A stretch of 64,000 nt of DNA from an uncultured Candidatus Saccharibacteria bacterium (GCA_964642155.1 CAZXNT010000001.1:83-64082), one strand, 5' to 3'; positions 25,431 to 60,324 are shown, counted from the first letter of the stretch. Numbers and translations are program-made. Notes: generated by a model from the sequence alone, not told the origin.

Positions 25431-26195
25431 TCATTTTTTATTCCTTTTTTTCGCCACGATAGTCTTATACATTCCAACTTCTTTAATAATTTCAATGTTA
25501 TATTCTGCGCCTATATTCTCGACAATCTCATTTATATCCAATCTCTCACGTTCGTCGTATTCATAATGATCCAACCATTCTTTTTCTGCGTCATGTAAAC
25601 CATGTTTTTCGCCATAAACTTTTTTGATCGCACTAACTTCGCTATCATATAGTTGTTTATGTTTTTCCGGGTCAGGATCGGCAATTTTTTCAGCACTAAT
25701 AAATAAATCCGGAGACAATCTTAACAGCTCCTTCCAGAAAAGTTTGCGAGCTTCTTTGGGAATATTATGGATTGTAGCTCCGGTTACGATAATTGGAAAC
25801 TCGCCTGTGTTAAATCCCATTTTTGTTGCATCCATTTCAATTAGTTGTATTGAGTCTCCAAGTTTTTCTCTTGCCGCTTTTAGCATTTCTGGATTCAAAT
25901 CAATCCCAACAATTTTTTTACATCCCGCATTTACAAAGAATGCGCTTGTTTCTCCGTCTCCGATACCGATATCAAGAATCGGCATACGTTTAAAATTTGG
26001 TTGCAGTTTTCTTGCACTATCAAAAACCGATTCTTCAAATTGTTTGTAATCTAAACCTTGCTCAGCAAATACTTCAGTAAAAAATTCTCCGTAATTATTG
26101 GATAATTTTTTAAATCTGTCCGCATCATTCGACGTTGTTTCTGGTATTTTTGGCAGTGATTCTTTGTCCATATTATCAATCAATAAAAAATACAA
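25431..26195 (-). CDS. Class I SAM-dependent methyltransferase
   Basis: Motif I ILDIGIGDGETSAFF and motif II/post-I KIVGIDLNPEML. Confidence 0.7.
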   Translation of the reverse strand: MYFLLIDNMDKESLPKIPETTSNDADRFKKLSNNYGEFFTEVFAEQGLDYKQFEESVFDSARKLQPNFKRMPILDIGIGDGETSAFFVNAGCKKIVGIDLNPEMLKAAREKLGDSIQLIEMDATKMGFNTGEFPIIVTGATIHNIPKEARKLFWKELLRLSPDLFISAEKIADPDPEKHKQLYDSEVSAIKKVYGEKHGLHDAEKEWLDHYEYDERERLDINEIVENIGAEYNIEIIKEVGMYKTIVAKKRNKK

Positions 26196-32714: not shown

Positions 32715-32729
32715 AACTTTGAAACTTTT

Positions 32730-41170: not shown

Positions 41171-41410
41171 TTAATTTTTTATCCATTCTTTTTGTGGGAT
41201 TCCCGACTGTTGGATAATACCCTTTAATGTTCTTGGTTTTAAAACTCTTTTACCATGAAAAGGAATGCATACTTGTCTAGATTGACCACTATAATTGCCA
41301 AAATAGAACATATGACTGCCCTTAGTGTACGTATGAAAGAAATTATATTCTTTTAAAAATCTTACTGCGTCTTCTGCTGTCCAATTGAAAAATCCTCTCG
41401 TCATAATCAA
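41171..41410 (-). CDS. hicA: HicA-like mRNA interferase toxin (YcfA family)
   Basis: 79 aa; KGSH motif in ...HTYTKGSHMFYFG...; size and position downstream of a HicB-like gene. Confidence 0.6.
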   Translation of the reverse strand: MIMTRGFFNWTAEDAVRFLKEYNFFHTYTKGSHMFYFGNYSGQSRQVCIPFHGKRVLKPRTLKGIIQQSGIPQKEWIKN

Positions 41411-41423
41411 TAAAAATTCGCGT

Positions 41424-41765
41424 TTAATACGCTGGCGCTGAAAGTCCTTGTAAAATTTGCTTCATATTGAGAATCCCCGAAGAAAAAACATTGTTTGTTT
41501 GTTTTTTGTTTTCCTGGCTATTTTGCCACATTTCTTCGTATTCGCTATTAGTCGCTTGATTTAAAATGCTGGGTCGAGATTTTATTTTTTTAGCCGCTTC
41601 AACATAGCCGGAAAACGCTTCAAATAACAATAAAATCGCTTCTTGAGGAGTATCGCCCGATTCCACTATATTAAATTCAAGACCAACCGCGTACCAAACA
41701 TTACCTTCTTTAAAAACAAGGTAGCGAACTGACCCTTTTTGTAAAGTATTTTTATATTTTTTCAT
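41424..41765 (-). CDS. hicB: HicB-like antitoxin (UPF0150)
   Basis: VFKEGNVWYAVGLEFNIVESGDTPQEAILLLFEAFSGYVEAAKK fits the HicB N-terminal fold. A palindromic operator lies at 41768-41788. Confidence 0.6.
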   Translation of the reverse strand: MKKYKNTLQKGSVRYLVFKEGNVWYAVGLEFNIVESGDTPQEAILLLFEAFSGYVEAAKKIKSRPSILNQATNSEYEEMWQNSQENKKQTNNVFSSGILNMKQILQGLSAPAY

Positions 41766-43159: not shown

Positions 43160-44857
43160 ATGGAAAATATCAAAGACATCACCGTATTCGCCAAAACAAA
43201 CTTCCGCAATAAGGACCGCTCTTTTGGCATCAAAACCGTTGACCGCCGCCAGCATATGTACGTCATCGGAAAAACCGGCACCGGTAAAACCACTATGCTT
43301 TTTAACGTGGCTCTTCAAGACATTATTAATGGCCGGGGAGTTTGCATTGTGGACCCGCACGGCGAATTCGTTGAAACAGTTATGAAAAGAATTCCCAAAG
43401 AACGGCTTAAGGATGTTGTTTATTTCAACCCGATAGACGCCGAACATCCGATAGGATTTAACGTATTGGAAGTCTCTGACCCGAAATACAAACACTTGGT
43501 GTCTTCGGATTTAATGGCGATTTTCACCAAAATCTGGGCGAATGTCTGGTCAGCCAGAATGGAGTACATTTTAAGTAACTGTGTTTTAGCTTTAATAGAT
43601 ACGCCCGGCACCACGCTTTTGGGCATACCGAGAATTCTTGTTGATAAAGATTATCGCCAGCGAATTATCGCCAATATTAAAGACCCGGTGGTAAAATCAT
43701 TCTGGATAAATGAATACGAAACATGGCGCGACCAATTCCGAAATGAAGCCATTGTCCCTATTCAAAACAAAGTCGGGCAATTTCTTTCAACTTCACTCAT
43801 CAGAAATATAGTCGGTCAGCCGAAAAGCACTATCAATATTCCCGAAATAATGAATAACGAAAAAATCCTTTTGGTTAATCTTTCAAAAGGAAGAATTGGA
43901 GAAGACAACGCCGCGCTTCTGGGAGCGATGATTATCACAAAAATCCAATTGGCGGCAATGGAAAGAGTAAGAATCCCGGAATCCGAAAGAAAAGATTTTT
44001 ATCTTTATGTTGACGAATTCCAAAATTTCGTTACCGACTCATTCGCCAATATCCTTTCTGAGGCAAGAAAATATCGGTTAAATTTGATTATTGCACACCA
44101 ATACATCGGTCAACTGGCGACTAAAGATTCAACTGTTGTACGAGACGCCATTTTCGGCAACGTCGGAACAATGATAATTTTTCGCATCGGCGCCACGGAC
44201 GCGGATTTTCTGGAAAAAGAACTGGAACCGGAATTTACCATTGAAGACGTTGTTAATCTGCCCAATCGCCAGATTTATTTAAAACTTATGGTTGATGGCG
44301 TTACCAGCCGGCCATTCTCTGCCAACACGCTACCACCTCTTGCCGTAACGACGCTCGACAATAATCACGAAGAGGTTATTGAAATGTCGCGTAAATTGTA
44401 CTCTAAGCCAAAACGCGAGGTTGAAGAAGAAATTTCCAGATGGAGCGGATTAGCAACAGAAAGACCAATAATAGAAAGAAAATTCGGTGGCGAAAAAAAT
44501 GAAGGGCGGGAAATTAGAGGAACCAGACCGGCTTTTGGAAGAGAGGGTTTTAAAAAATTTACGCATGCCGGGCATTTGGGAGAAATCGGCATAGAATTTG
44601 AACCGCCACGGCGAAAAACTTTTGGAGAGGTTAAAGCGCCATTAAAAAAAGAAATTTCTTTGGAAGAATTGAAAAAACCTGATTTGGTAAACCCCGTTAG
44701 AAATAGTCCCGCTCAGCGGGACGCGATTTCTAACGGGGTAAAAAAATCGCCGGAACAAAAAGAACCGGCAATAAAAGAATTCGCCAAAAAATCAATAAAC
44801 GAAAATCAAATAGAAGAATTAAAAGATGCCATTAAGAAAGCGATAGAAGGAGCTTAA
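43160..44857 (+). CDS. Soluble VirD4/TraD/TraG-like (type IV coupling protein / FtsK-HerA superfamily) ATPase, paralog A
   Basis: Walker A GKTGTGKT, DPHGE, Walker B YLYVDEFQNF, IAHQYIGQL; no N-terminal TM helices. Confidence 0.6.
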   Translation: MENIKDITVFAKTNFRNKDRSFGIKTVDRRQHMYVIGKTGTGKTTMLFNVALQDIINGRGVCIVDPHGEFVETVMKRIPKERLKDVVYFNPIDAEHPIGFNVLEVSDPKYKHLVSSDLMAIFTKIWANVWSARMEYILSNCVLALIDTPGTTLLGIPRILVDKDYRQRIIANIKDPVVKSFWINEYETWRDQFRNEAIVPIQNKVGQFLSTSLIRNIVGQPKSTINIPEIMNNEKILLVNLSKGRIGEDNAALLGAMIITKIQLAAMERVRIPESERKDFYLYVDEFQNFVTDSFANILSEARKYRLNLIIAHQYIGQLATKDSTVVRDAIFGNVGTMIIFRIGATDADFLEKELEPEFTIEDVVNLPNRQIYLKLMVDGVTSRPFSANTLPPLAVTTLDNNHEEVIEMSRKLYSKPKREVEEEISRWSGLATERPIIERKFGGEKNEGREIRGTRPAFGREGFKKFTHAGHLGEIGIEFEPPRRKTFGEVKAPLKKEISLEELKKPDLVNPVRNSPAQRDAISNGVKKSPEQKEPAIKEFAKKSINENQIEELKDAIKKAIEGA

Positions 44858-45192
44858 AATTTAGGCCTAATTTGCGGAGGAATATTCGGCTTATCGCTTA
44901 TCGGCCTGATTAAAATCAGGCGTAAAAGTTTTAATATCACCAACACTAAAATAAAATATCCCGCCATTGCCGAAAGAGTTGTAAAATCAATTATTCCCTT
45001 CTCAAGATAAACATTTGGAAATATGAATTTAAACGGCGCCGCTATAAAATCGGTTATTTTATAAAGCAATTCCACGATAAGCGCTTTTGAGCTGGCTGCT
45101 AAAAATTTCAAAACTACTCTAACGCCCAAAACAATTTCTAACAAACCGGTCAGATATTTAATTATCGCGGAAATATAATAATATTTTTCCAT
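44854..45192 (-). CDS. Hypothetical small membrane protein (2 TM)
   Basis: ORF; hydrophobic. Confidence 0.35.
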   Translation of the reverse strand: MEKYYYISAIIKYLTGLLEIVLGVRVVLKFLAASSKALIVELLYKITDFIAAPFKFIFPNVYLEKGIIDFTTLSAMAGYFILVLVILKLLRLILIRPISDKPNIPPQIRPKF

Positions 45193-45220
45193 TTAATAAA
45201 TAATAATATATTCTTAAATT

Positions 45221-47086
45221 TTACGCAACCTCCGCTTGATAACACTTCTCGCAGTATACTATCTCTTTTCTCTCGGGTGCATAGGTAGTTTCAAACTCAT
45301 TGCGACAGGGTTCTGTTCCGTGAGTATGAGTAATGGTGTTTTGATAAACTCCGTTGTCTGATTTAGTGCCATTACATTGGCACTTTCTTTTCCATAATTT
45401 GAAAGGGTTTCTTTGTTTGATTCTCTGATAATGACGGCAGTTGGGACATAATCTGGGCAAGGGAAGATTCATTTTACGGTAAAATTCCAGTTCTTGGGGG
45501 ATGATTTTGAAGGCAGTTGTGCACCCCGACGCATCTTGGTCGGGGCTCCGACCCCTTTGGGCGTCGGAGTTGTTCGCGCATTGAATAACTTGGTTTAATA
45601 TATCATCTTTAACATCCTTTATATGATCAGGGAGTTGATCTGATTTTATAGTTATTGGTATGTTCCTTTCTTCCGGGTCTTTCCAGCTATATCCTTGTTC
45701 TATGGCTTGTTCTTTGGTCAAGGGGAAATATTCTTGGGCTATGGTTTCATTATACGCAAACGGACTTAATTCCGGCGGGAAAAATTCTCCATATTTGTAT
45801 ATCCTACCTTTTTTGTCCACATACGGCATAGAATTCATATGTTCTATGATTTGAGTCCTGAGCTTGTCGAAGGATTCCTTGGTATATTGTTTGTTGAGAA
45901 TGCAGTATTTACCTTTTCGCACCATACTGCATCCAAACATATAATCAGATGAAACGACTGTATCGCAATATTGTAAATAATCACCTATCCATGAACCAAA
46001 AGAAAATTTTGTATTGCTAATATTTTCTCCACAATTAATTGATTCATACATTAAAGAAGCATTATTTCCCCAATCGCCATAATCATAACAATCTTTACTA
46101 ATCGGCATATGCGCCTGAAAACAATATTTTAAATTTTCTCCTCCAACAATATCAAATGAATAAAAAATATTTTTACTATTAGAAATATAATCGCCGGAAA
46201 CATTTAAATTTAAGAGTCCATTAGTATTGGGCTTATTTATAGAATTTAACCAAAAATCTTCTGACTTTTTTTTATATTCTCTAATTATTTTAAAAGACTT
46301 AAAATTTAAATTTTCAATAAATTTAGAATATTCTTCTTTTGAATATGGCTTATTAAAAATATGATAATTTTTATGCCTTAAATTTGTACAACTAAAACAA
46401 TTTTGACAGTTTTTAAGATTTTTTGAGAAATAAACATCAATACAATCCAAACAATTCATTGAGAAAGAACACTTATAACAATTTTCGCAATTAAAAAGCT
46501 CATAAGATTTTTGTGTATTAAAAACCCTATAGCAATCCATGGAATCCTGAGATCCCACTATAATTGACGAGTAAGAGCAATTTTCGTTATCTTCGGCTTG
46601 TATTACTAAATAACAATTTTTTAACGGACCGGTATAATTAGTGTATTCGCTATTTATACTGCGTAAATAATCTATTAATAAACTTATCCTTGGAATTTTA
46701 TTTAATAATTCTCTAAATTGTTCAAAAAACGGCTTAGAAAAATCATAATCCCTGCCATAATCTAAAGCATTCCATTTATCCGACAACCAACAAGACGGAC
46801 AATAAACAGGAAAAGAAGTATTCTGGGGATAAACAGCTATTATTAATTTATCACATAAATCGCATTTCCTTTTATAAAAAGTTCTTTCATTTTTGAAGGT
46901 CATTCTTCGTATCAACCTGCACTCCGGACAAAAAGTCGGCGCCGGCACTTGCAGTTTTTTATACATCTCAATATCTTCAATAAAGATATCAAAATTAACA
47001 CTGCATTGTTTGCAAGTTTTACTGTGGGGTTGAAGATTATCTAAAATCTCACCCAACGCTTTATCAAATTGTGGGGTTTTGGACAT
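45221..47086 (-). CDS. Large Cys-rich protein, paralog 1. N- and C-terminal zinc-ribbon-like modules (CxxC...CPxCR...RKC), internally duplicated Cys-cluster / LRNKxYxIxNKQYSKEEY modules
   Basis: See findings. About 50 Cys; conserved termini shared with 48901..50697 and 50722..52371. Confidence 0.6.
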   Translation of the reverse strand: MSKTPQFDKALGEILDNLQPHSKTCKQCSVNFDIFIEDIEMYKKLQVPAPTFCPECRLIRRMTFKNERTFYKRKCDLCDKLIIAVYPQNTSFPVYCPSCWLSDKWNALDYGRDYDFSKPFFEQFRELLNKIPRISLLIDYLRSINSEYTNYTGPLKNCYLVIQAEDNENCSYSSIIVGSQDSMDCYRVFNTQKSYELFNCENCYKCSFSMNCLDCIDVYFSKNLKNCQNCFSCTNLRHKNYHIFNKPYSKEEYSKFIENLNFKSFKIIREYKKKSEDFWLNSINKPNTNGLLNLNVSGDYISNSKNIFYSFDIVGGENLKYCFQAHMPISKDCYDYGDWGNNASLMYESINCGENISNTKFSFGSWIGDYLQYCDTVVSSDYMFGCSMVRKGKYCILNKQYTKESFDKLRTQIIEHMNSMPYVDKKGRIYKYGEFFPPELSPFAYNETIAQEYFPLTKEQAIEQGYSWKDPEERNIPITIKSDQLPDHIKDVKDDILNQVIQCANNSDAQRGRSPDQDASGCTTAFKIIPQELEFYRKMNLPLPRLCPNCRHYQRIKQRNPFKLWKRKCQCNGTKSDNGVYQNTITHTHGTEPCRNEFETTYAPERKEIVYCEKCYQAEVA

Positions 47087-47104
47087 AAAAATTATTCGGA
47101 TATT

Positions 47105-47413
47105 TTATTTAATACACGTCTGCAACCACTCCTTGTATTCCTTATTAACTCTAAAAATATTGATTACGGCTATGCAAGGAAGTATTTTTTGATGATTTTG
47201 TTCGTGAATTAAATTTTCAATCTCCTGCACTTTGGCTTCTACGGTTTTTATTAAAACAGTTATGCCCGGCTGGCTGACCACCCCTTCATCTCCCTGATAT
47301 AAAAAATTTACTCTTGATAAATCAACCGTGCCTGCCAATCCTTTTTCAAGAATAAGTTTGCTTACTTTTTTTGCTTCTTCTTCATCGGAATATGTAACGT
47401 GGATAAATACCAT
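47105..47413 (-). CDS. cutA: Divalent-cation tolerance protein CutA-like
   Basis: 102 aa. MVFIHVTYSDEEEAKK...GLAGTVDL...YKEWL matches the CutA1 fold pattern. Confidence 0.55.
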   Translation of the reverse strand: MVFIHVTYSDEEEAKKVSKLILEKGLAGTVDLSRVNFLYQGDEGVVSQPGITVLIKTVEAKVQEIENLIHEQNHQKILPCIAVINIFRVNKEYKEWLQTCIK

Positions 47414-47417
47414 ATTA

Positions 47418-48875
47418 TTACACTATTGGCTCTTCCGACGGCAATGAAATTTCCGTGGAAGATTTATTTTCGACCTTTGAAATTGGAGCATCGGAGTTTC
47501 CGGCGGAGGACGGCTTTGTAGCCAATCCCTCTTCTTCCGCAATTTTTCTTTTTACTTCTTCAATTGACGAACAATAAATTTGACGATTGTATTCAATGAT
47601 TTTATCTTTATAAGACGGATGCGTTGGCGGTAAAATTTTTAAAGTTTCAGCGGAAAACGGGTCAGCAGTGCCGCCGTCAATGGTCATTTTAATGTAAAAT
47701 TCCTGCATTCCCAGATTTATCATGTCTTTTGCCTTGAAAACCGGCGTCATTTCTTTTTCAAAAACAAGCGCGTCATCGCCGCCAAGCCGAAAAATTACCA
47801 TTGTCGCCACATTGCCCAAAAAAGTCGCCATTATTTGCGGCTGAAGCTGAGCGCGATACTGATGCGCCACTATTAAAGCCAAGCCGTATTTTCTCGCCTC
47901 AGTAAGAATATTGATAAAAGTATCCGTTACCACGTTGTAAAATTCATCAACATAAAAATAAAAATCTTTTCTTTCTCTTTCTTTAATTGCCGACCTTGCC
48001 GTGCCGGCTTGATAAATTTTTGTCACAAACATTGAGCCAAAAAAACTGGAATTTTCTTCTCCTAATTTCCCTTTTGATAAATTTATAAGCAGAATTTTCT
48101 GCTCATTCATTATTTTTTCAAGGTCAACTTTATTTTCTTTTTGACCGAAGATATAACGCAATAATGGATTGGATAAAAACTGACCAAGTTTATTAACTAA
48201 GGGAATAATGGCTTCGGTGTCAAATTTTTCCGACCAATCGGCAAATTCAATCGCCCAAAATCTTTTAACCATTTCGTCTTGGATATATTCCACAACTTTT
48301 TGGCGATAATTTCTATCATTAAGCAATTTCAACATTCCATGCATAGTTGCGTCTGGATAATCAAGTAACGCCAAACAAGTAAATCTAAAAACGTGCTCCA
48401 ATCGCGGCGTCCAATTAGCGCCAAATTGTTTTTTTAAAACTTCAATTAACCCTTGCGTTACTTGATGTTTCATTTCCGGCTCCACATTTTGCAAAGGATT
48501 AAATGAAACCGGCCAATTTGTGTCAGACGGGTCAATTAAAACAACATCCTTTATTCTGTTTTCCGGAATAAAATTAAGAATATCTTCTATAATATCGCCG
48601 TGCGGGTCCATTAAACATAATCCATGGCCATAATTAATATCTTGCCTAATCATTAATTCAAGCATTTTTGACTTCCCCACTCCGGATTTCCCAATAATGT
48701 AGAAATGGCGTCTGCGGTCATTCCTTTTAATTCCAAAAACATATCTTTTGCTTTCAAATTCTGATTCGTAGTTGGTGCGACCGAAAAAACAAACCTCTTG
48801 AGGGTCAACTTGTCCGTAAATCGGCAAATCCGAAGGCGGCGATGCGTATTTAATTATTTTAACTTTATCTGTCAT
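47418..48875 (-). CDS. Soluble VirD4/TraD/TraG-like ATPase, paralog B
   Basis: Walker A GKSGVGKS, DPHGD, Walker B FYVDEFYNV, VAHQYRAQL. Confidence 0.6.
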   Translation of the reverse strand: MTDKVKIIKYASPPSDLPIYGQVDPQEVCFFGRTNYESEFESKRYVFGIKRNDRRRHFYIIGKSGVGKSKMLELMIRQDINYGHGLCLMDPHGDIIEDILNFIPENRIKDVVLIDPSDTNWPVSFNPLQNVEPEMKHQVTQGLIEVLKKQFGANWTPRLEHVFRFTCLALLDYPDATMHGMLKLLNDRNYRQKVVEYIQDEMVKRFWAIEFADWSEKFDTEAIIPLVNKLGQFLSNPLLRYIFGQKENKVDLEKIMNEQKILLINLSKGKLGEENSSFFGSMFVTKIYQAGTARSAIKERERKDFYFYVDEFYNVVTDTFINILTEARKYGLALIVAHQYRAQLQPQIMATFLGNVATMVIFRLGGDDALVFEKEMTPVFKAKDMINLGMQEFYIKMTIDGGTADPFSAETLKILPPTHPSYKDKIIEYNRQIYCSSIEEVKRKIAEEEGLATKPSSAGNSDAPISKVENKSSTEISLPSEEPIV

Positions 48876-48900
48876 TTACTTTTTATTATAGCACTTTACC

Positions 48901-50697
48901 TCAAACAACCTCCTGTTGATAGCATTGTTCGCAATACACAATTTCTTGTCTATCTGGGCTGTAAGTGGTTTCAAATTCATTGAGGCAGGGTTCTGTTCCG
49001 TGAGTATGGGTAATGGTGTTTTGATAGATATTGTTTTCTGATTTTTCTCCAGCGCATTGGCATTTTCTTTTCCATAATTTTAAAGGATTTCTCTGTTTGA
49101 TTCTCTGGTAATGGCGACAATTGGGGCACAATCTAGGTAAAGGAAGATTCATTTTACGGTAGAATTCCAGTTCCTGAGGAATGATTTTGAAGGCTTCTGT
49201 ACACTGCTCGTTGCAAGTTCCTTTATGCTGACATTCTATAATTTGATTAAAAATATCGTCTTTGACATCTTTAATATTGTCGGGTAATTGAGAATTTAAA
49301 ATTGAAAATTGAAAATTTCTAACCTCCGGGTCTTTCCAGTTATAGCCCTGTTCTATTGCCTGTTCTTTAGTCAGAGGGAAATATTCTTGAGCTATTGTTT
49401 CGTTATACGCAAACGGACTTAATTCCGGAGGAAAGAATTCACCGTATTTGTAAACTACTTGTCCTGAGCTTGTCGAAGGATGCCTTTTTGAGATATAGGG
49501 CATATCATTCATATGCTTGATAATTTTCGGCACCAATTTTTCGTATTCTTCTTTACTATATTGTTTATTCAAGATGCAGTATTGCTTGTTGCGAAGGCCG
49601 ATGCAGCCAAAGAGGTTAGAGGAATTGTGACAATTATAAGAGTAATAGACATCCTGTCCTCCCCATATAACAACACCAAACATTAATCGTGAAGCCTGAA
49701 CTCCTGTATCAATAACTTCATATAACATTTCTCCATTTACTCCAACGCCATAACCATCATAGCTATCTCGTAAATCCAACGCGTTCATAACAAATTTACA
49801 ATCCCTCACATTTCCCACAACATCAAAACAATTCAAGCAATTAAAACTATTGTTAACCGCATCACCTGTAATTTTTTGAGAATGTGAAATATTCGCCGAT
49901 TTTCTTAATGCTTTTAATTTTAATTCATTAAATTTATTTTTAATTTCTTTTAAAAATTTAAAATGACCTATATTAAATTGTTCCAATTTATTAAAATATT
50001 CTTCTTTTAAATAGGGTTCGTTAAAAATATGGTATTGCTTATTTCTCAAACCCACTGATCCAAAAACATTTGAACAGCCTTTGCAATCATAAATAAACGA
50101 ACAATTGTTGCAATTTTCGGAATCTTGAGCAAAAAAGGTTGAATATAATTTCGCGGAACTTATATCCTCATAACAAAGCTCACAATTAATAACCGCAAAA
50201 TTATCCGCTGAATCTTTTGATTGGTTACATCTGGATGAATACATTATATTCTCCCCATCCCACGACGCGGAAACTAAATAACCGTTTTTAAAATCTCCTA
50301 TATGATTGCAAAAATTGCTGTTTATTGATCTCCCGTTAAACAAAGCTGGCATTGGCACATGAAGCATTAAATCTTTAAATTGCTTTAAAAAAGTGTTTTT
50401 AAAATCCAATTCTATACCGAAATTCAAAGCGTCCCAATCATCAGACCACCAAATATCTCTATTATAAACCACAATTCCAGATTGTGGAGAAAAACATGAA
50501 ATAAGATCTTTTCCTGTTTTAGCGCACTTATTCCTATAAAAACTTCTTTCGTTTCTATATGTAAATCTCCTCTGTATCCTGCACTCCGGACAAAAAGTCG
50601 GCGGAGGAACCTTTATTTTGGCGTAGAATTCAAAATCTTCGAACTCAATTGTAAAATCATTTTTACAGTTTTGGCATTTTTTTATTTCTTGATTCAT
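48901..50697 (-). CDS. Large Cys-rich protein, paralog 2
   Basis: Same architecture as paralog 1. The C-terminal ~200 aa is ~90% identical to paralog 1. Confidence 0.6.
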   Translation of the reverse strand: MNQEIKKCQNCKNDFTIEFEDFEFYAKIKVPPPTFCPECRIQRRFTYRNERSFYRNKCAKTGKDLISCFSPQSGIVVYNRDIWWSDDWDALNFGIELDFKNTFLKQFKDLMLHVPMPALFNGRSINSNFCNHIGDFKNGYLVSASWDGENIMYSSRCNQSKDSADNFAVINCELCYEDISSAKLYSTFFAQDSENCNNCSFIYDCKGCSNVFGSVGLRNKQYHIFNEPYLKEEYFNKLEQFNIGHFKFLKEIKNKFNELKLKALRKSANISHSQKITGDAVNNSFNCLNCFDVVGNVRDCKFVMNALDLRDSYDGYGVGVNGEMLYEVIDTGVQASRLMFGVVIWGGQDVYYSYNCHNSSNLFGCIGLRNKQYCILNKQYSKEEYEKLVPKIIKHMNDMPYISKRHPSTSSGQVVYKYGEFFPPELSPFAYNETIAQEYFPLTKEQAIEQGYNWKDPEVRNFQFSILNSQLPDNIKDVKDDIFNQIIECQHKGTCNEQCTEAFKIIPQELEFYRKMNLPLPRLCPNCRHYQRIKQRNPLKLWKRKCQCAGEKSENNIYQNTITHTHGTEPCLNEFETTYSPDRQEIVYCEQCYQQEVV

Positions 50698-50721
50698 AAT
50701 TTTTTATTCATAATCCATAAA

Positions 50722-52371
50722 TTATACCACTTCTCTTAAATAACACTCTTCACAAACAATTTTTTTATATCCCCATTCTTTTGGATAATAGGAAACAATA
50801 TTTTTTTGACAAAACGCGCATTTGGCCTCAACCGGATTGATGCAGAACAAATTTTTTATTCTGCTTTTGGTGCGCACATCAGGATAGTGATGAGGCAAGG
50901 GAATGGAATGTTTTTTGTAAAATTCAACTTCTTCCCGCCTTAAATTAAACGGTCTGCCTGTTTCTTCGCACAAAAAAACCCTACCAGCCATTTCATCACC
51001 CACAGTGCTTATATCATCTATAAATGGATTTATGGTTAAGTTAGAAACATCAGCATCTTCAAGCTCTTCCCAATTTCCTTCCGATTTAACAACTTCTTCT
51101 TTTACCTTGGGGAAAAATATTCCGGCTAAAGAAAGATTATATCCTCCGTGCGCCATTTTATAAGGAAAAAATTCGCCATAAGAACCATCATTTTCCATCG
51201 CCTGCTTGATTTTAGCCACCAAATCATAATAATCTTCTTTGGAATACTGCTTATTTAAAATGGAATAGCTTTTATTTTTCAACCCAACGCACCCGAAACA
51301 ATTTTCGCACCCGACACAGGAATCAAGATATTCACTGTCACGGCAATTTATACAATAATTAGAGTGCTTCATATTGTATATCTCAGTCATTTGATTTACG
51401 TCATACGCCAATTCTCCTTTATAAACCCCAGTCGAGTCATTTACGTCCTTATTCATCGCTCCTCTGAAATAATAAGAACAATCCTCCGATTTTTCCAAAA
51501 AATAAGAATTTTTACATTTTTTACACTCGCTTAAATAATTACCGCTTGAATTAACGGTTTTGGTATTGAAATTATTTTTATGAACCGCTTCTTCCTTAAT
51601 TTTTTTCTCAAAAGTTTTCTTTAAAAATTGAATCGTATTCCAAGAATTTAAATTATATTCCTTCAATTTCTGAAAATATTCTTCCTTGGAATACGGCTGG
51701 TTTAAAATATAATATTCTTTATTGCGCAAATTCCAACACATAAAGCAATTTCTCATGTTGTGGCAGTCATACAAAAACGAGGCGTCAAAACTGTCTCGCG
51801 TATCAAAAGCGTATTTTACATTATAAAGCTTAAAACAATAGGAGCAGTCGTAGGATAGTTCAGAATCATAACAATAAGTTAGATCATATGAATCGCGACA
51901 ATTTAAGGTTCTGTATGAATATAAAAGATTTTCGCAATTTGCCAAAGACCGACAAAGATAGCAATTTTTTGAATCCCACACATCATCGCAATAATCGCAA
52001 TTTTGATTATTAGAGCCGAATTGGTGCGGTTTGGGCGCTTTTGTTTGCAATTCATAAAGCTGGTCAAAAAAAGTTTTGGAAAAGTCGTATTCTAAAAAAG
52101 GCGGTTCCCAAGCATCCGAATACCAATGACTCGATTTATATACCGGAAAGTGCACGTTTGACGGAAAAATAGAAATTATGCTTTCTCCGCTCAAATCGCA
52201 TTTTCTTTTGTTAAATTTGGCAAACGGCCAAAAAGCCAGCCGTTTTTGTTGACGACAACTTGAACACATTCTCGGCGCCGGGACTTTTATTTTAGCGTAA
52301 AACTCAAAATCCTCCGGCTCAATGGTAAACTGGTTTTTACAGTTTTGGCACTGTTTGGTTTCGGAAATCAT
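50722..52371 (-). CDS. Large Cys-rich protein, paralog 3 (more divergent)
   Basis: N-terminal CQNCKNQFTIEPEDFEFYAKIKVPAPRMCSSCRQQKR, internal duplicated modules, and a C-terminal Cys ribbon. Confidence 0.55.
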   Translation of the reverse strand: MISETKQCQNCKNQFTIEPEDFEFYAKIKVPAPRMCSSCRQQKRLAFWPFAKFNKRKCDLSGESIISIFPSNVHFPVYKSSHWYSDAWEPPFLEYDFSKTFFDQLYELQTKAPKPHQFGSNNQNCDYCDDVWDSKNCYLCRSLANCENLLYSYRTLNCRDSYDLTYCYDSELSYDCSYCFKLYNVKYAFDTRDSFDASFLYDCHNMRNCFMCWNLRNKEYYILNQPYSKEEYFQKLKEYNLNSWNTIQFLKKTFEKKIKEEAVHKNNFNTKTVNSSGNYLSECKKCKNSYFLEKSEDCSYYFRGAMNKDVNDSTGVYKGELAYDVNQMTEIYNMKHSNYCINCRDSEYLDSCVGCENCFGCVGLKNKSYSILNKQYSKEDYYDLVAKIKQAMENDGSYGEFFPYKMAHGGYNLSLAGIFFPKVKEEVVKSEGNWEELEDADVSNLTINPFIDDISTVGDEMAGRVFLCEETGRPFNLRREEVEFYKKHSIPLPHHYPDVRTKSRIKNLFCINPVEAKCAFCQKNIVSYYPKEWGYKKIVCEECYLREVV

Positions 52372-52880
52372 ATCAATTCCAATTCAATATTTAAAAGTTC
52401 TTCCATTGTTTTATGATAAATTTCGATTATTCTTTTAGCTTCTCCTATCGGCAAATGAAAATCGGCTTCGTGGGCAAGCCTATTCCTAACTTTATGCGCT
52501 TCCCATAATTCATTTATGTTTTTAAATTCGCTCGGATGAATTGATTTTAATCGCTCTCCCATATCTTGGCCCGGATGGCCGTGTTCTTTTAAAATTTCGT
52601 CAACCAAACTGTCGGCTTCAATAATCGCCAAACGCAAATCGCGCTCATCGCCGGATTTTATTCTTTCTAATAATTTACTCCATTTTTTATGAATTAATTC
52701 TCTATGCTTGATTATCTGCCTATATTTACCGTCAGTTACTTTCAAACCCTTAAGAAGATTAAGAGTTTCCGAAGGATTCAATTTTTGCCTGAATGCCGAA
52801 GATTTTACCATCAGCCAAATAATGGCGATGACTAACGCCAGTATTAGAATAATTAAAATAATTTGCAAAGTTAATATCAT
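52368..52880 (-). CDS. Membrane-anchored protein with C-terminal HEPN-like Rx4H motif (RNRLAHE)
   Basis: N-terminal TM helix; C-terminal ELWEAHKVRNRLAHEADFHLPIGEAKRIIEIYH (R-x4-H in a helix). Confidence 0.4.
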   Translation of the reverse strand: MILTLQIILIILILALVIAIIWLMVKSSAFRQKLNPSETLNLLKGLKVTDGKYRQIIKHRELIHKKWSKLLERIKSGDERDLRLAIIEADSLVDEILKEHGHPGQDMGERLKSIHPSEFKNINELWEAHKVRNRLAHEADFHLPIGEAKRIIEIYHKTMEELLNIELELI

Positions 52881-52885
52881 AAAAT

Positions 52886-54232
52886 TTACTCTTCTTCAAA
52901 TATCGGTAAACCCGCCGGCGGACCCATTTTCTTGCTTTCTGTCCGTTCAATATGCGGAGATGTCAAAACTTGTTCAGCCGGGATATGATAAATAGTCGCG
53001 AGTTCAGAAGTGACAAAAATTGAAGTTTTTGATTTATTATTAAAATCAAAAATATACGATGTCATAAATCTGCCAAAGAACAATTTTTCCGGAAATAATC
53101 TATTCTTGAAATTATATAATAATCGTTGTTTTCTCGCTTCAACTCTTTGGTCAATAAAAACATGAGGAGAATAAATCCATCTTGATCTAGTCTCAACCAA
53201 GGGATTATTCTTAAAAAAATTTAAAGAAGAAGCATATTGGTTAAAAGCGCCCAAAATGCCCTTTCTCGCAAAATTTGTATTATAAATAGAATTTGGAGCA
53301 ATATAAAGAAAACGAATTAAGCTTTCAAAACCGTGCTTGGAAAGTTTATTTTCAATTTCTTTCATGGCTTCGTAGTCGCTGATATTTGCCGGCTCTTTTT
53401 TTGCCGGTTCTTTCGGTTCAGACCAAACGGGATATTCCGTCGGCGCCCATAAAAAATTTTTCGCCCATTCATATATAATTTGATTAAACCCTCCTTTTTT
53501 CCCTTCTTCTTTGCCGAGTTTTTTATTTACAAAATCTCTTCCCTCATTTTTCCAATCATCATTAAGCGGAGCGATTAAAATTTGGATAAAAACGTTTTCT
53601 TCTTTATGAATCCCAGCCAAAACTTCAATGAGTGCTGAGAGAGGATCAACTATTACTTGTTTTTGGTCATCAAGTTTTGCAGGTTGATTAAAAAAATGGT
53701 CGTAAGTAATAATAGGATAAAAATCCTGTTTGCCTAAATTAAACTCACTGCCAAAAATATTCTCATTACTCTCATAAAATTCTTTTGTAGAATTAGGTAA
53801 TTTGTTAAGATAATCTTCGGCCTCAATAATTTCAATATTGGGATATTGCGCGTGCATTCCCGCTTCAAACATTTTTTGATTTTTTTTCGGCGTTCTGATA
53901 TAAAAATGGATTTTGCCGCCAAGACTCGCTATTTCCAGACTCCACCATAAAGTCACCTCGCCATCAGTATATTTTTCTAAAAAATTTCCGGGTTCATTCT
54001 TTAAGCTATGCAAATTTATAAAAAATTGCTCCATTGCCTTCGGCGTTTTCAAAACTTCACGAGGAATTTTTAATTCCAAAACCGCCCATTTAATAGTTTT
54101 TTTATAGAGTGACTGCTTATAAAAAAGCCATGCCTGCTCAAATATTTTAAAAAGCGCTATTACCAACGCTAAAAGTCCCAATAAGAATAAAATTGAGTAA
54201 ATTAAAGATTGATTTGACTCAAAAAAAGCCAT
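52886..54232 (-). CDS. Hypothetical membrane-anchored protein (448 aa)
   Basis: N-terminal TM helix; no recognised domain. Confidence 0.4.
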   Translation of the reverse strand: MAFFESNQSLIYSILFLLGLLALVIALFKIFEQAWLFYKQSLYKKTIKWAVLELKIPREVLKTPKAMEQFFINLHSLKNEPGNFLEKYTDGEVTLWWSLEIASLGGKIHFYIRTPKKNQKMFEAGMHAQYPNIEIIEAEDYLNKLPNSTKEFYESNENIFGSEFNLGKQDFYPIITYDHFFNQPAKLDDQKQVIVDPLSALIEVLAGIHKEENVFIQILIAPLNDDWKNEGRDFVNKKLGKEEGKKGGFNQIIYEWAKNFLWAPTEYPVWSEPKEPAKKEPANISDYEAMKEIENKLSKHGFESLIRFLYIAPNSIYNTNFARKGILGAFNQYASSLNFFKNNPLVETRSRWIYSPHVFIDQRVEARKQRLLYNFKNRLFPEKLFFGRFMTSYIFDFNNKSKTSIFVTSELATIYHIPAEQVLTSPHIERTESKKMGPPAGLPIFEEE

Positions 54233-55261
54233 TTATTTAACACTATATTTGCCGTCCGGCATTCTTTTAAAATGCCTTCTGTTTTGGAGATTGAGCAAAA
54301 TAGTATTGTCTTTAAGGAACCTTTCCTGCTTTACCAAATCAACAACTTCTTCTTTATGAAGCGGCCCCTTTGTTTTCAAAATCCGCATAATAACGTCTTT
54401 GGCGATACCCGGTTTCAAACCGAATTCCGAAAGCCCGTACATGCCCCGTCCAACCAAAACAAAACGCGGGTCTTTTATCAATTCATTATGAATGGTTTGA
54501 TAAAGGGCGTGGCGCTTATTAAGTTTAAGTTCGTTTATTTTTTTCGCGATTTCTTTGAAATGCAACGGAGCGCTGTGCTTTTTTAAAATCAAATAAGCTC
54601 TCGCCCGGGCGGTTTTGGGAGTTATTTCTTCCCAATGCGTCAAACCAAAATCGCCAAAAGGACTCACTCCGAATTTTTTTGAAATTGAAGCGTAATTCAA
54701 AGCGATAAAATCTTTAACATTATGGGATTTGACGACTTGCGCAAAAAGTTCATCAAATTTTTTATGAGTGATAAGTTCTTCTTTTTTATCGGCAATAAAT
54801 TTTTCGAGCTTATTAATAAAATCAACGGCAAGCTTCTGTGATTCCTTATTTAAATACCAAAAGCTGTAAAAATTCTTTTCTTCAATTTGATGAAGAGGAG
54901 TTTTAAAAACTTCAAAAATAAATTTTAATTGTTCGCCGGTGATTGTGTTAGTTTTAAATAATCCCCTTAATTCATTAAGAAAAACATTTTCTCTCATCAC
55001 GCCGCCGACTTTTTTAAGGTGGTTGATAGCATCTTCAATTATTCTGCCGGCTGCCTGATTTTTTTTAAGTTTTTCGCTTATTGATTTCAAGCTGGCACTT
55101 TCAATTTGCCTCACCCTCTCGCGAGTTAAGCTGTATTTTTTGCCAACCGTAGCCAAAGTGCGCTTTTTGCCGTTCAAACCAAATCTTTGTTCAATAATAT
55201 CTTTTTGGCGCGGAGAAAGTCCAGAAATTAAATCGTTGATTATATTATTTATATTTTCCAT
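54233..55261 (-). CDS. Sigma-70 region-4-like HTH protein with ~250 aa C-terminal winged-helix-like extension
   Basis: LSPRQKDIIEQRFGL...KRTLATVGKKYSLTRERVRQIESASLKSI matches the sigma region 4 helix-turn-helix. Confidence 0.5.
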   Translation of the reverse strand: MENINNIINDLISGLSPRQKDIIEQRFGLNGKKRTLATVGKKYSLTRERVRQIESASLKSISEKLKKNQAAGRIIEDAINHLKKVGGVMRENVFLNELRGLFKTNTITGEQLKFIFEVFKTPLHQIEEKNFYSFWYLNKESQKLAVDFINKLEKFIADKKEELITHKKFDELFAQVVKSHNVKDFIALNYASISKKFGVSPFGDFGLTHWEEITPKTARARAYLILKKHSAPLHFKEIAKKINELKLNKRHALYQTIHNELIKDPRFVLVGRGMYGLSEFGLKPGIAKDVIMRILKTKGPLHKEEVVDLVKQERFLKDNTILLNLQNRRHFKRMPDGKYSVK

Positions 55262-55269
55262 TTTTATAT

Positions 55270-55299
55270 ATTATAAAGACAACACGGTTAATATGTCAA
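55270..55299 (-). promoter_or_regulatory. Consensus sigma70-type promoter (TTGACA-N18-TATAAT) driving a leaderless transcript for the 54233..55261 gene
   Basis: Minus-strand reading: GTTGACATATTAACCGTGTTGTCTTTATAATATATAAAA ATG. Only 8 nt separate the -10 hexamer from the ATG. Confidence 0.6.
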
Positions 55300-55342
55300 C
55301 CCCCCACATAAATTTATGTGAGGGTTAAGTGTTTTAACGATG

Positions 55343-55414
55343 TGGGCGCAAGAAGGATCGAACTTCTGACCTTTCCGATGTGAACGGAACGCTCTACCAC
55401 TGAGCTATGCGCCC
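55343..55414 (-). tRNA. tRNA-Val (anticodon CAC)
   Basis: Reverse complement GGGCGCATAGCTCAGTGGTAGAGCGTTCCGTTCACATCGGAAAGGTCAGAAGTTCGATCCTTCTTGCGCCCA; anticodon loop TTCACAT. Confidence 0.8.
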
Positions 55415-55490: not shown

Positions 55491-55859
55491 TTACTTCAAT
55501 TCCACCATTGCTCCTACCCCCTCTAGCTTTTTCTTAAGCTCTTCAGCTTCTTCTTTTTTAAGTCCGATTTTTACCGGCTTTGGAGCGCCTTCAACTAAAT
55601 CTTTGGATTCTTTTAAGCCAAGCCCGGTCGCTTCTTTAACGGCTTTAATAACGTTAATTTTTTGATCGCCGACTGATTTCAAAATAACATCAAAAGAAGT
55701 TTTTTCCGCCACTTCTTCACTTCCCGTCGCCACTCCTCCGCCAACAGCCATTGCGGAAGCTGAAACGCCGAATTTTTCTTCCAATGTTTTAACCAATTCC
55801 GCCAATTCAACAACCGTTAATTTTTCAATTTTTTCAATTATATCTTTAAATTTTTCCAT
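55491..55859 (-). CDS. rplL: 50S ribosomal protein L7/L12
   Basis: 122 aa; C-terminal domain [25 protein letters not shown]. Confidence 0.9.
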
Positions 55860-55936
55860 AAAATTTTAGCATCTTATTTATTTTCGACCATTTTGTCCTT
55901 CGGTTTAACTCAGGACAACCTCTTCGAGCCTGAGCC

Positions 55937-56452
55937 TCAGAGCCGAAGGCCTGAGCCTGTCGAATGGGTTGATTTCTCATTTAACACATACAAAAACATT
56001 CTCATTGGCGCAACTAACATTCCAACCAATTGCCCCAATAATACTTCTCTCGACGGCAATTGGCCAATTCGTGTTACCATCGCGCCGTCAAATGAATTCT
56101 TTTCCGCCAAATCATAACCACCCAAAATTTTAAAATTCTTGTTTTTTATTTCTTTGGAAAATTTATAAATCAAACCGGCGATTTCGGAAATATCTCCTTG
56201 CGTGGAAATAGTCCCAACCTGCAAATCAAATTGCTCCGGGTCAAAATCAAAACCGCTGTCTTTCAAAGCGATTCTTAAAAGTTTCTTTTTAAAAACTTTT
56301 AATTTCGCTCCAACGGAACTTAATAAACGGCGCAATTTTTTTATATCCTCAACCTTCGTTCCGCTAAAATCAATAAAAGCTAAAGTTCGGCTTTGTTTAA
56401 GCATACTCTTACTTTCTTCTATTTGCTGTAATTTTTGAGATTTAGTAAGCAT
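55937..56452 (-). CDS. rplJ: 50S ribosomal protein L10. Start placed at the internal Met MLTKSQK; the ORF-track start at 56527 is probably a spurious extension
   Basis: LAFIDFSGTKVEDIKKLRRLL...LKVFKKKLLRIAL fits L10; rplJ-rplL gene order. Confidence 0.75.
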   Translation of the reverse strand: MLTKSQKLQQIEESKSMLKQSRTLAFIDFSGTKVEDIKKLRRLLSSVGAKLKVFKKKLLRIALKDSGFDFDPEQFDLQVGTISTQGDISEIAGLIYKFSKEIKNKNFKILGGYDLAEKNSFDGAMVTRIGQLPSREVLLGQLVGMLVAPMRMFLYVLNEKSTHSTGSGLRL

Positions 56453-56623
56453 TTTAAATAAAAAACGGCTTTTAAAGCCGCAGACAAAAAATACGTTATC
56501 CTCGAGAGGTCTTACTGCGCCCTCCATAGCTTTAGCGAAGGAGGGTTGTGCGCCTCTTGTCTGCGGAATTTATATTATATTAGCAAATAGAATTTTAATG
56601 TCAATAACCTTAATGGCTAATAG

Positions 56624-58535: not shown

Positions 58536-59198
58536 TTATCGCAATAATTGGCAATTAAAATTTTTCCCAACGCTATCATTACATCCATTTAATGGACATT
58601 GACAACTTTGTTGACATTTTTCTAAATTAGGATAACTACTCATTGTGTGAGTACTAGTTATCCCAATCGCATTCGTGGTTTGATATTTACACTCATATCC
58701 TACGTTATATCGAATCGGTTCTTCTTTTTTCGATTCTTGCTTTTTTACCTCAACCGGCACTAACTTTTCCATTTCCAAATTCACCAATCTTGTGCCGCCT
58801 ATTGTCCGCAAAAGCAAATTTGCGCCCAATAACAGAACCAAGCCCCAGACAGCGCCGGTAATCCAGGAAATGGCGTCTGCTTGCCCTGATGGATTCCCCG
58901 CGGAAACCGTGTATTTTATGCCGCCAAAAATTATAGCTCCCAAAGCCGCTACTCCGACTGCGGCTAAGGCGTAATTATAAAAATTTCTTACCAAACCAGC
59001 GATGTCGCCGACCTTACCCTTACACCAAGGATATTGCTGATCGCAAGAAATATTAGATTTAGCAGTTTGATTTTCTATACATTCTTCATATTCTCCTGCC
59101 AGAAACTTTAAATCTTCACTACACGCCGCCAATGCCAAAACCGGCGCTGTTAAAATTAGAATTACAAAAAATATTAAAAAAAACTTATAAAAATTCAT
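58536..59198 (-). CDS. Secreted Cys-rich protein with VirB2/TrbC pilin-like two-helix hydrophobic core, paralog 1
   Basis: Signal peptide; FYNYALAAVGVAALGAIIFGGIKYTVSAGNPSGQADAISWITGAVWGLVLLLGANLLLRTI is two hydrophobic helices joined by a short polar loop. Confidence 0.45.
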   Translation of the reverse strand: MNFYKFFLIFFVILILTAPVLALAACSEDLKFLAGEYEECIENQTAKSNISCDQQYPWCKGKVGDIAGLVRNFYNYALAAVGVAALGAIIFGGIKYTVSAGNPSGQADAISWITGAVWGLVLLLGANLLLRTIGGTRLVNLEMEKLVPVEVKKQESKKEEPIRYNVGYECKYQTTNAIGITSTHTMSSYPNLEKCQQSCQCPLNGCNDSVGKNFNCQLLR

Positions 59199-59199
59199 A

Positions 59200-60324
59200 T
59201 TATCTTACGCCACCGCCCCCTGTATAAGGAGTCACTTTAATATTACCAATCCCTCTTTTTGCCGCTGCTTCATTTGTATAAAAACTCGTATGAGCAGAAG
59301 TAGCATAACTTACATTAAGACTATTACTCGTTCCCGTATTTTCATTTACAAGTGCCACACCATATTCATTTTTATTTGAATTTACAAAATCATAGTAAGC
59401 CTTGTTATAAGTTATATCCAAAGACGGATATCCAAACCCTTGTTCTTTGTGTTTAGCTGCTGATTCGGTGCCGCCAGTTGCTTGAATTTTTGCCACTTCA
59501 GTTGGGTTTATTTTACGAAAATCTTCCACTGTCCTTATATATAAATCTATCGTATCTCTTGGCATACCGTTGAGACTTGTTTTACATTGAGAACTACTTT
59601 GATCAGCACAAACTCCGCTCACACCGGCACTACTAGTAACTTTAATACCCGCTGTATTTAATTTTGCTATTGCTTCATCATGATTATAAAGTTTTTTCTT
59701 TTGATCTTCTGTCCAATTACTCTTATCGGTTTTTTTATTAAAAAGTTCCGGATTAGTATCATAATATCCTCCAAAATAACCTATCGCTAACTTACTTTCT
59801 CCAATCACTGTGCTCCCTTGTTTTAGCGCCTCCACTTGTACCTCCTTTAATTTCTCCAATTCTAAATTAGTCAACTTCGGGTTTATGGTCCGCAAAAGCA
59901 AATTTGCGCCCAATAACAGAACCAAGCCCCAGACAGCGCCGGTAATCCAGGAAATGGCGTCTGCTTGCCCTGATGGATTCCCCGCGGAAACCGTGTATTT
60001 TATGCCGCCAAAAATTATAGCTCCCAAAGCCGCTACTCCGACTGCGGCTAAGGCGTAATTGTAAAATTTCCTCACTAAATCAGCTATATCACTAGGCTTA
60101 TCATCACACCAAGGATATTTATATTTTTCAAGCGCGCCTCCGCAACCTACGGTAGATTGCGCTTGTGATTTTTCAGCTTGTATACACTCTTCATATACCC
60201 CTACTCCTTGAGATTCTAAGTCTTCTTTGTTGCACGCCGCCAACGCCAAAACCGGCGATATCAAAAACAAAACCGCGAACATAACGAATATAAATATAAA
60301 AAAAAAATGGTAATTATTTAACAT
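59200..60324 (-). CDS. Secreted Cys-rich protein with pilin-like core, paralog 2 (longer C-terminal domain)
   Basis: Identical 57-aa hydrophobic core. A 172-bp block is DNA-identical to paralog 1. Confidence 0.45.
   Translation of the reverse strand: MLNNYHFFFIFIFVMFAVLFLISPVLALAACNKEDLESQGVGVYEECIQAEKSQAQSTVGCGGALEKYKYPWCDDKPSDIADLVRKFYNYALAAVGVAALGAIIFGGIKYTVSAGNPSGQADAISWITGAVWGLVLLLGANLLLRTINPKLTNLELEKLKEVQVEALKQGSTVIGESKLAIGYFGGYYDTNPELFNKKTDKSNWTEDQKKKLYNHDEAIAKLNTAGIKVTSSAGVSGVCADQSSSQCKTSLNGMPRDTIDLYIRTVEDFRKINPTEVAKIQATGGTESAAKHKEQGFGYPSLDITYNKAYYDFVNSNKNEYGVALVNENTGTSNSLNVSYATSAHTSFYTNEAAAKRGIGNIKVTPYTGGGGVR

Follow-up and report, generated by a model that had tools for sequence, protein, structure and literature searches.

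A conserved chromosomal module of the Paceibacteria combines VirD4-like ATPases, a DUF8128 membrane protein and arrays of cysteine-rich proteins

The closest described relatives of the ATPases considered here are the VirD4/TrwB/TraG/TraD type IV coupling proteins (T4CPs). In Patescibacteria, almost all genomes contain about two genes for VirD4-like "coupling proteins" without linkage to a type IV secretion system (T4SS). A survey of 2,918 Patescibacteria genomes counted 5,713 VirD4-like T4CPs and stated that exaptation "cannot be ruled out" (PMC12102498). We analyzed a locus encoding two of the ATPases counted there as "T4CP homologues" in a 64,000-nucleotide stretch of DNA, referred to as the window, from an uncultured Candidatus Saccharibacteria bacterium (GCA_964642155.1, CAZXNT010000001.1:83-64082). 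Besides the two ATPases (A and B), the locus encodes a protein with helix-turn-helix (HTH) domains (SigHTH), a DUF8128 membrane protein, a 170-residue membrane protein (TM170), CutA, a small YGGT-family membrane protein, and three cysteine-rich proteins (Cys1 to Cys3). The locus represents one instance of a chromosomal module conserved in the Paceibacteria, the Parcubacteria-type members of the Candidate Phyla Radiation (CPR). The module is a genuine one, and we found no description of it in the literature searched.

The two ATPases share with the coupling proteins a P-loop motor domain that exceeds the Pfam gathering scores. Both matched the Pfam/NCBIfam families TrwB_AAD_bind, T4SS-DNA_transf, TraG-D_C, and DUF87; ATPase A scored 57, 30, and 29.7 bits for the first three, respectively, and ATPase B scored similarly. 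The best sequence match in the PDB, a distant one, was TrwB. ATPases A and B are 44% identical to each other, their Walker A and B motifs are intact, and ATPase A ends in a basic low-complexity tail of about 130 residues. They differ from the VirD4/TrwB type in several respects. Their best score against the NCBIfam equivalogs (the conju_CD1115 and TraD families) was 57.8 bits, under the cutoff of 250. They occur as two paralogues per locus, with housekeeping-level conservation, and they lack the N-terminal transmembrane (TM) domain. The absence of a TM anchor had been proposed in an initial annotation of the window, and our hydropathy scan agreed, giving maximum 19-residue values of 1.28 (ATPase A) and 1.44 (ATPase B).

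The ATPases also differ from the VirD4/TrwB type in that no linkage to virB4, to pilins, or to a relaxase is conserved (PMC12102498). T4SSs of Patescibacteria (VirB4/TrsD/VirB3/VirB6/VirB8 with arrays of VirB2-like pilins) occur in the same organisms, and the window itself contains T4SS-like parts 3 to 8 kb upstream of the locus, as the initial annotation had noted: two pilin paralogues (58536-60324) and a VirB4-like ATPase (61514-63253) located about 6 kb from the module. The similarity of ATPases A and B to this VirB4-like protein was limited to the P-loop. The further suggestion that the locus rides on a T4SS did not hold. No VirB4 or pilin homologue was found within 10 kb of the module in any of 163 other loci, in agreement with the published survey, in which 148 of the 5,713 T4CPs lay near virB4 (PMC12102498). 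The adjacency seen in the window is thus not conserved, and the module has its own promoter and partners.

The anchor missing from the ATPases may be encoded by a neighboring gene of the module. The 448-residue product of this gene was assigned to PF26449 (DUF8128) on the basis of precomputed matches, one of them to a homologue with 93% identity and others to nearly all of the homologues listed. A Pfam scan of the window protein at E values of up to 0.1 returned no family, the PF26449 model presumably being outside that set. DUF8128 has hundreds of unnamed homologues in Patescibacteria, and its C-terminal region carries a conserved tail (...KKMGPPAGLPIF). According to the hydropathy scan, DUF8128 and TM170 each have a single TM helix at the N terminus with basic residues after it, a topology in which the domains of both proteins should face the cytoplasm. 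A DUF8128 profile found no match among PDB sequences and no similarity to the VirB4-like protein of the window, and the family was not mentioned in any paper found by our literature search.

A connection between DUF8128 and the ATPases was found in phage proteins. The phrog_5156 profile (824 positions) matched DUF8128 with its N-terminal part and both ATPases with its C-terminal part. Likewise, residues 29 to 256 of Bacillus phage G gp156, a single protein of 825 residues, aligned to the DUF8128 profile (hhalign probability, 96.9%; E = 1.9e-10), and approximately residues 381 to 758 aligned to residues 60 to 424 of ATPase B (E = 1e-35). Because the two parts are fused in gp156 and joined in phrog_5156, we regard DUF8128 and the ATPase as two halves of one protein of VirB4 architecture. 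Judged by sequence, then, the "soluble VirD4-like" ATPase appears to be one part of a divided protein and DUF8128 the other. We propose that DUF8128, with its TM helix and a cytoplasmic VirB4-like alpha/beta domain, is the anchor and N-domain of the ATPase. Such a split-off anchor domain would account for the missing TM segment, and DUF8128 most likely holds the "soluble" ATPase at the membrane in trans. The arrangement is distinct from that of VirB4 (TrwK of plasmid R388, PDB 7o42) in that two separate genes encode it, DUF8128 contributes a TM helix of its own, and the ATPase half is nearer to T4CPs than to VirB4 by sequence. It also differs from gp156 (PHROG 5156; also SPO1 gp27.4-like), which is a fused protein of Firmicutes phages, is preceded in phage G by a VirB-like gene, and has no adjacent Cys-rich genes.

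We compared the module across two samples of loci. One, seeded with DUF8128, comprised 80 metagenome loci, with testable loci as the denominators; the other, seeded with a Cys-rich protein, comprised 80 genome loci plus three further loci. Each of the underlying searches yielded more than 560 confirmed loci, which are lower bounds. The conserved order was sigma-R4/HARE-HTH, DUF8128, the TM-HEPN-like protein, ATPase B, CutA (not always present), the Cys-rich array, and ATPase A, and it was kept in 80 to 93% of testable cases. SigHTH lay directly upstream of DUF8128 in 56 of 60 loci, and SecDF was found upstream in 20 of 33. Downstream of DUF8128 we found TM170 (51/64), an ATPase (43/50), a Cys-rich gene (15/22), and CutA (12/22), usually straight after ATPase B; the denominator of 22 represents loci with at least 6 kb available downstream. 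Module members were co-directional in 403 of 405 genes. The ATPase following TM170 or DUF8128 was of the B type in 41 of 45 cases and the second ATPase was of the A type in 14 of 15, and each type forms an orthologous group with 63 to 72% identity across lineages. A and B are two ancient paralogues that have been kept together, and TM170 and CutA are regular module members. Cys-rich genes were bracketed by ATPases A and B in at least 14 loci.

Of 82 loci in the Cys-seeded sample, 29 contained an ATPase gene, which shared the strand of the seed gene in every case but one (L018). By our own rough estimate, about 5% would be expected by chance if two genes were placed in a genome of some 0.8 Mb. 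The full order was present wherever the contig extended far enough. A second order also recurred, namely DnaK, ATPase, Cys-rich, ATPase, DnaJ, and Cys-rich. The YGGT gene occupied the same position in five relatives (L018, L089, L093, L094, and L099). The initial annotation had called the locus accessory and had named a lack of co-occurrence in related genomes as grounds for discarding its proposal. The gene set does co-occur in related genomes, so the proposal is not refuted on those grounds. The accessory label has to be dropped, since the GC content and base composition of the locus resemble those of its surroundings, the module is conserved across the Paceibacteria, and ATPase B orthologues are 70 to 80% identical across Wolfe-, Azam-, Giovannoni-, and Niyogibacteria. 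We also rejected a horizontally acquired island, given the unremarkable base composition and the conserved synteny. Overall, the original observation was essentially right and its interpretation partly so: the module is genuine and conserved, and it is neither accessory nor tied to a T4SS. The orphan T4CPs thereby gain a genomic context that includes a putative VirB4-like anchor in trans, a membrane HEPN-like protein, an HTH protein, CutA, and Cys-rich arrays.

An exhaustive homologue search returned 2,607 cluster representatives for TM170, the family motif of which is WEAHKxRNxxAH. Among 40 aligned homologues, D90, D94, G104, H129, R132, and N133 were invariant and H137 was at least 90% conserved. 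The Rx4H motif that had been pointed out in this membrane-anchored protein is thus real and, as Rx4-6H, family-wide. The accompanying HEPN-like call stood as far as the motif is concerned and remained below threshold in profile searches, in which four HEPN Pfam families were matched: HEPN_Swt1 by 15 of the 40 homologues (best E = 0.0013), Hypoth_Ymh by 11, RiboL-PSP by 5, and Cthe_2314 by 4. A weak match (E = 0.26) was obtained between the motif region and a HEPN toxin in the PDB. We consider the HEPN-like designation, which derives from motif and profile comparisons, reasonable but unproven.

The Cys-rich proteins belong to a huge, fully uncharacterized family that makes up a notable share of these tiny genomes. 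They had been described as having about 50 cysteines each; the actual numbers are lower (Table 1), amounting to 5.0 to 5.8% of residues, and the family median is 32. For Cys2 we found at least 7,940 homologues, all "hypothetical," without Pfam domains, from Paceibacteria lineages, and with 52 to 64% identity. That these proteins match no recognized family was borne out: no informative family was found in Pfam, NCBIfam, PADLOC, or PHROGs, no match was found in the PDB by phmmer or with a family profile, and a Foldseek search of the PDB with a predicted model returned nothing with an E value below 3.8. Weak matches were seen to phrog_15341 (function unknown) among the Cys-rich proteins, including Cys3, and to zf_Tbcl (PF13451) in residues 5 to 44 of Cys3 only (E = 0.026; 14.9 bits against a cutoff of 24). 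The proteins have no signal peptide or TM segment, no homologue was found in 50,697 phage records, and we found no literature linking them to the T4CPs of CPR bacteria.

The predicted model of Cys2 (pLDDT, 78.5) consists of a treble-clef/zinc-ribbon, two helix-closed beta-solenoids, an alpha/beta region, and a second zinc-ribbon, in this order. The N- and C-terminal zinc-ribbon modules are duplicates of each other, as indicated by cross-matches between paralogues (E = 2e-9 to 2e-6). Conserved Cys/His positions concentrate in these terminal modules, with a C8/C11/C36/C39 quartet that is at least 99% conserved in the family, and a CxxCxxCxxC run is found in solenoid 1. Between paralogues the ends are 70 to 94% identical and the solenoids 25 to 45%. 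The isoelectric points (pI) range from 6.1 to 7.9 and the net charge of the terminal modules from +1 to +6; the pI values led us to reject a basic, nucleic-acid-binding character. We also rejected the idea that recent gene conversion made the C-terminal parts of Cys1 and Cys2 nearly identical. The DNA of these parts is only 81 to 85% identical and the region is nearly invariant family-wide, which points to constraint.

A relative from Hainich groundwater carries the same operon with four Cys-rich genes, and its flanking genes are 86 to 96% identical to those of the window. Cys3 and its orthologue in the relative are 87% identical, with a ratio of nonsynonymous to synonymous substitution rates (dN/dS) of 0.08, and Cys1 is 74% identical to its counterpart (r594), with a dN/dS of 0.16. 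The Cys2 slot of the relative is occupied by a paralogue with just 51% identity, and one of its Cys-rich copies is absent from the window. Values of dN/dS were 0.06 to 0.16 across the compared genes and 0.08 to 0.16 for the orthologous Cys-rich pairs, indicating purifying selection; it is the repertoire that changes and not the sequence of orthologues. The proteins had been called diversifying, which is apt for the turnover of paralogues and not for orthologues, for which we rejected positive or diversifying selection.

Other genes are found in or beside the arrays. A gene for a 142-residue CTP_transf_like (cytidylyltransferase-type) protein lies within the Cys-rich arrays of eight loci (L001, L002, L003, L034, L047, L156, L163, and L165), and the array of L001 also contains an APH-type kinase gene. 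In nine Nomurabacteria-type loci (L014, L025, L043, L052, L060, L062, L068, L069, and L076), genes for cysteinyl-tRNA synthetase and an AI-2E-like permease lie convergently right after the block of ATPase, DnaJ, and Cys-rich genes. The position of a cysteinyl-tRNA synthetase gene near those of proteins with 5 to 6% cysteine may be plain synteny.

We propose that ATPases A and B and DUF8128 constitute a housekeeping membrane translocation motor of which the Cys-rich proteins are clients, a reading that is inferred as to both the motor and its clients and to which we assign a probability of roughly 0.45. The motor would be membrane bound, hexameric, and of the FtsK/VirD4 type. The Cys-rich proteins would most likely be its cargo, passed via the constant terminal modules, and their variable solenoids would supply functional diversity. 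The recurrent SecDF and DnaK/DnaJ neighbors point to protein handling rather than conjugation. Cargo status is further suggested by the known translocation of substrates by this motor family, by the lack of signal peptides in the Cys-rich proteins, by the paralogue arrays with constant ends and variable cores, and by the turnover of the repertoire between close relatives. The module is unlike type VII secretion systems (T7SSs; EccC/EssC with EccE and co-encoded substrates) in having no WXG100/LXG proteins and no EccB, EccD, or EsaA-type components, and its candidate clients are probable metal-binding proteins of 550 to 620 residues. With this proposal the open question of the T4CPs becomes specific, namely, whether DUF8128 tethers the ATPase, whether the ATPase moves the Cys-rich proteins, and which metal these bind. 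Should the Cys-rich proteins prove to be cargo, CPR bacteria would have a novel export pathway at the core of their lifestyle.

Several points weigh against a motor with Cys-rich clients. The module encodes no polytopic channel protein. The conserved CxxC/His pattern suggests stable cytoplasmic metal sites, and the C terminus of the Cys-rich proteins is predicted to be folded; both features are unlike typical T4SS/T7SS cargo signals. Many Cys-rich genes are solitary, having no ATPase within 10 kb, and the family is well conserved between lineages (50 to 64% identity), unlike most effectors. Moreover, a T4CP homologue of Ca. Southlakia epibionticum is not essential (PMC12102498, citing Wang et al. 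2023). A more far-reaching version seems improbable to us. It holds that the split ATPase pair, DUF8128, and TM170 form a T4SS-independent, Paceibacteria-specific translocation pathway, so far unrecognized, by which dedicated Cys-rich cargo lacking signal peptides reaches the cell surface or enters host cells, with turnover of the repertoire tuning the host interaction.

T4CPs and FtsK-HerA ATPases are classic DNA pumps, and the ATPases may instead translocate DNA or RNA for uptake, segregation, or export, with SigHTH and the zinc-ribbon proteins binding the nucleic acid and TM170 cleaving RNA at the membrane. Both ATPases match TrwB_AAD_bind, and NCBI names their orthologues "DNA-binding domain-containing." SigHTH is basic (pI 9.9), the RNxxxH motif of the HEPN-like protein is invariant, and ComEC adjoins the second ATPase in one locus (L002). 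CPR bacteria are also without de novo nucleotide synthesis (PMC12857230). We nevertheless consider a role in nucleic acid translocation unlikely, as the Cys-rich proteins are near neutral, their terminal modules bear little charge, genes for a nuclease, a relaxase, or a channel are absent from the module, and its recurrent neighbors are SecDF and DnaK/DnaJ and not DNA-metabolism genes; relaxases are, in addition, rare in Patescibacteria (PMC12102498). A different question is whether the Cys-rich proteins belong to the system at all. SigHTH, DUF8128, TM170, and the ATPase(s) could be the sole functional unit, with Cys-rich, CutA, and YGGT genes as neighbors by inherited synteny that have an unrelated cytoplasmic role, e.g., in metal handling or redox. 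The solitary Cys-rich genes, the 7 of 22 DUF8128 loci without a Cys-rich gene in the downstream 6 kb or more, the combination of 30 to 34 cysteines and conserved histidines with an adjacent member of the divalent-ion tolerance family CutA, and the small metabolic genes (CTP_transf_like and APH) interspersed in the arrays would all fit. We doubt this separation because Cys-rich genes are sandwiched between the ATPase paralogues in the 14 or more loci mentioned above despite differing contexts (SecDF versus DnaK/DnaJ), and because they are co-directional with tiny gaps or overlaps, suggestive of co-translation.

The initial annotation had also raised a defense system. In such an anti-phage or conflict system, the Cys-rich solenoids would sense, the HerA/mad8-like ATPases would transduce, and the membrane HEPN-like protein would be an abortive-infection RNase. 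PADLOC indeed gave isolated partial matches, of the ATPases to mad8 (E = 1e-16) and HerA and of SigHTH to the C-terminal HTH of MzaA, and the HEPN-like motif, the paralogue turnover between close relatives, and the constant ends with variable repeat cores are features that one might expect of it. However, no complete known anti-phage system was matched by PADLOC, the identity of ATPase B across candidate phyla is at housekeeping level, the context is fixed beside secDF, dnaK/dnaJ, and rplJL, selection is purifying throughout the compared genes, and with the numbers of loci confirmed the presence of the module is not patchy. Given this conservation and the housekeeping neighbors, defense is the least likely of the rivals and, in our judgment, very improbable.

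As shown in Table 1, nine genes of the locus run head to tail on the minus strand and converge on ATPase A. All ten open reading frames were found as initially annotated, including their junctions: the first two genes abut (54233/54232), the next pair is separated by a 5-nt gap (52886/52880), and TM170 and Cys3 overlap by ATGA (52371/52368). The remaining gaps within the unit are 4 to 28 nt, and YGGT and ATPase A have overlapping stop codons (44854-44857). The domain calls for SigHTH, the two VirD4-like ATPases, CutA, and the small membrane protein were likewise reproduced. CutA scored 55.8 bits with Pfam CutA1 (cutoff, 22.4), covering profile positions 2 to 98 of 99, and 57.5 with the NCBIfam equivalog, under its cutoff of 120.

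Table 1. Features of the module in the window (positions counted from its first nucleotide)
Feature	Coordinates	Strand	Size	Description
Sigma-70 consensus promoter, TTGACA-N18-TATAAT	55270..55299	-		Upstream of SigHTH
SigHTH	54233..55261	-	342 aa	First gene of the unit; Sigma70_r4 + HARE-HTH
DUF8128 (PF26449) protein	52886..54232	-	448 aa	One N-terminal TM helix
TM170	52368..52880	-	170 aa	N-terminal TM helix + HEPN-like domain
Cys3 (Cys-rich protein 3)	50722..52371	-	549 aa	32 Cys; zinc-ribbon modules on either side of two beta-solenoids
Cys2 (Cys-rich protein 2)	48901..50697	-	598 aa	30 Cys; paralogue chosen for modeling
ATPase B	47418..48875	-	485 aa	T4CP/VirD4-like FtsK-HerA P-loop ATPase; core-module type
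CutA	47105..47413	-	102 aa	CutA1 family
Cys1 (Cys-rich protein 1)	45221..47086	-	621 aa	34 Cys
YGGT-family small membrane protein	44854..45192	-	112 aa	2 TM segments; last minus-strand gene
ATPase A	43160..44857	+	565 aa	Second T4CP-like paralogue; convergent with operon

SigHTH contains a Sigma70_r4 HTH (residues 12 to 61), a helical region, and a HARE-HTH domain (residues 221 to 280). Sigma region 2 was not found with Pfam or NCBIfam; hence, SigHTH is not a sigma factor. The promoter described upstream of this gene was confirmed. The ATG lies 8 nt past the -10 box and has no Shine-Dalgarno sequence, so that the mRNA would be leaderless or nearly so. The promoter is the single perfect match to its pattern in the window, compared with 0.05 expected from shuffles, and a close relative (L085) has conserved the two hexamers along with the spacer between them and their distance from the ATG. 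TTGAC-type promoters near the SigHTH start codon recur in other loci. When the upstream 60 nt were compared across 56 loci, with start codons assigned heuristically, many showed a run of G residues ahead of TTGAC (GGGGGTTGAC...) together with an extended -10-like TGnTA near the start. These shared motifs suggest a conserved promoter architecture. The promoter would drive the nine co-directional genes with SigHTH first, SigHTH would probably autoregulate the unit, and the promoter is possibly read by the protein's own sigma-R4 domain. At the other end of the unit, the strongest terminator-like hairpin of the region (44706-44722, minus strand; GTCCCGCTGAGCGGGAC; 6 GC pairs) lies about 130 nt beyond the YGGT stop codon, within the 3' coding part of ATPase A, and may terminate the nine-gene unit.

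The module is flanked by housekeeping genes. On one side lie pheS, hicAB, tsaD, ftsW, mltG, and rpoBC, and on the other side rplL, rplJ, and ndk, followed by the T4SS-like cluster. The rplJ-rplL and rpoB-rpoC pairs are usually neighbors in bacteria; in the window (55491-56527 and 29169-35894, respectively) they are about 20 kb apart and are separated by the module together with pheS, hicAB, tsaD, ftsW, and mltG. The hicAB pair (41171-41765, minus strand) lies between tRNA-Glu/pheS and the gene for a DUF5667 coiled-coil protein. It encodes a 79-residue HicA toxin (Pfam HicA_toxin) and, upstream, a 113-residue partner with no Pfam match, which is probably a HicB-like antitoxin. Elsewhere in the window we found a BRO-N protein (24545-25495, minus strand) and two PAS-domain histidine kinases (8969-11515, plus strand; 14460-15785, minus strand). 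The BRO-N domain is typical of phages.

An Rfam scan of the window returned tRNAs only. One of them, a tRNA-Val (55342-55414) that the initial annotation had overlooked, is situated between the rplL terminator and the promoter of the module. In the Hainich relative, the orthologue of this tRNA-Val(CAC) (L085:940-1075) is broken in the D-loop by an insertion of about 120 nt, which is bounded by the inverted repeat CCCCCACACCAAAAATTT / AAATTTTGGTGTGGGGG and holds a complete, different tRNA-Val(CAC). ARAGORN called the inner tRNA-Val of this region and not the outer one. A related palindrome is found in the window at 55282-55343, directly downstream of the intact tRNA-Val.

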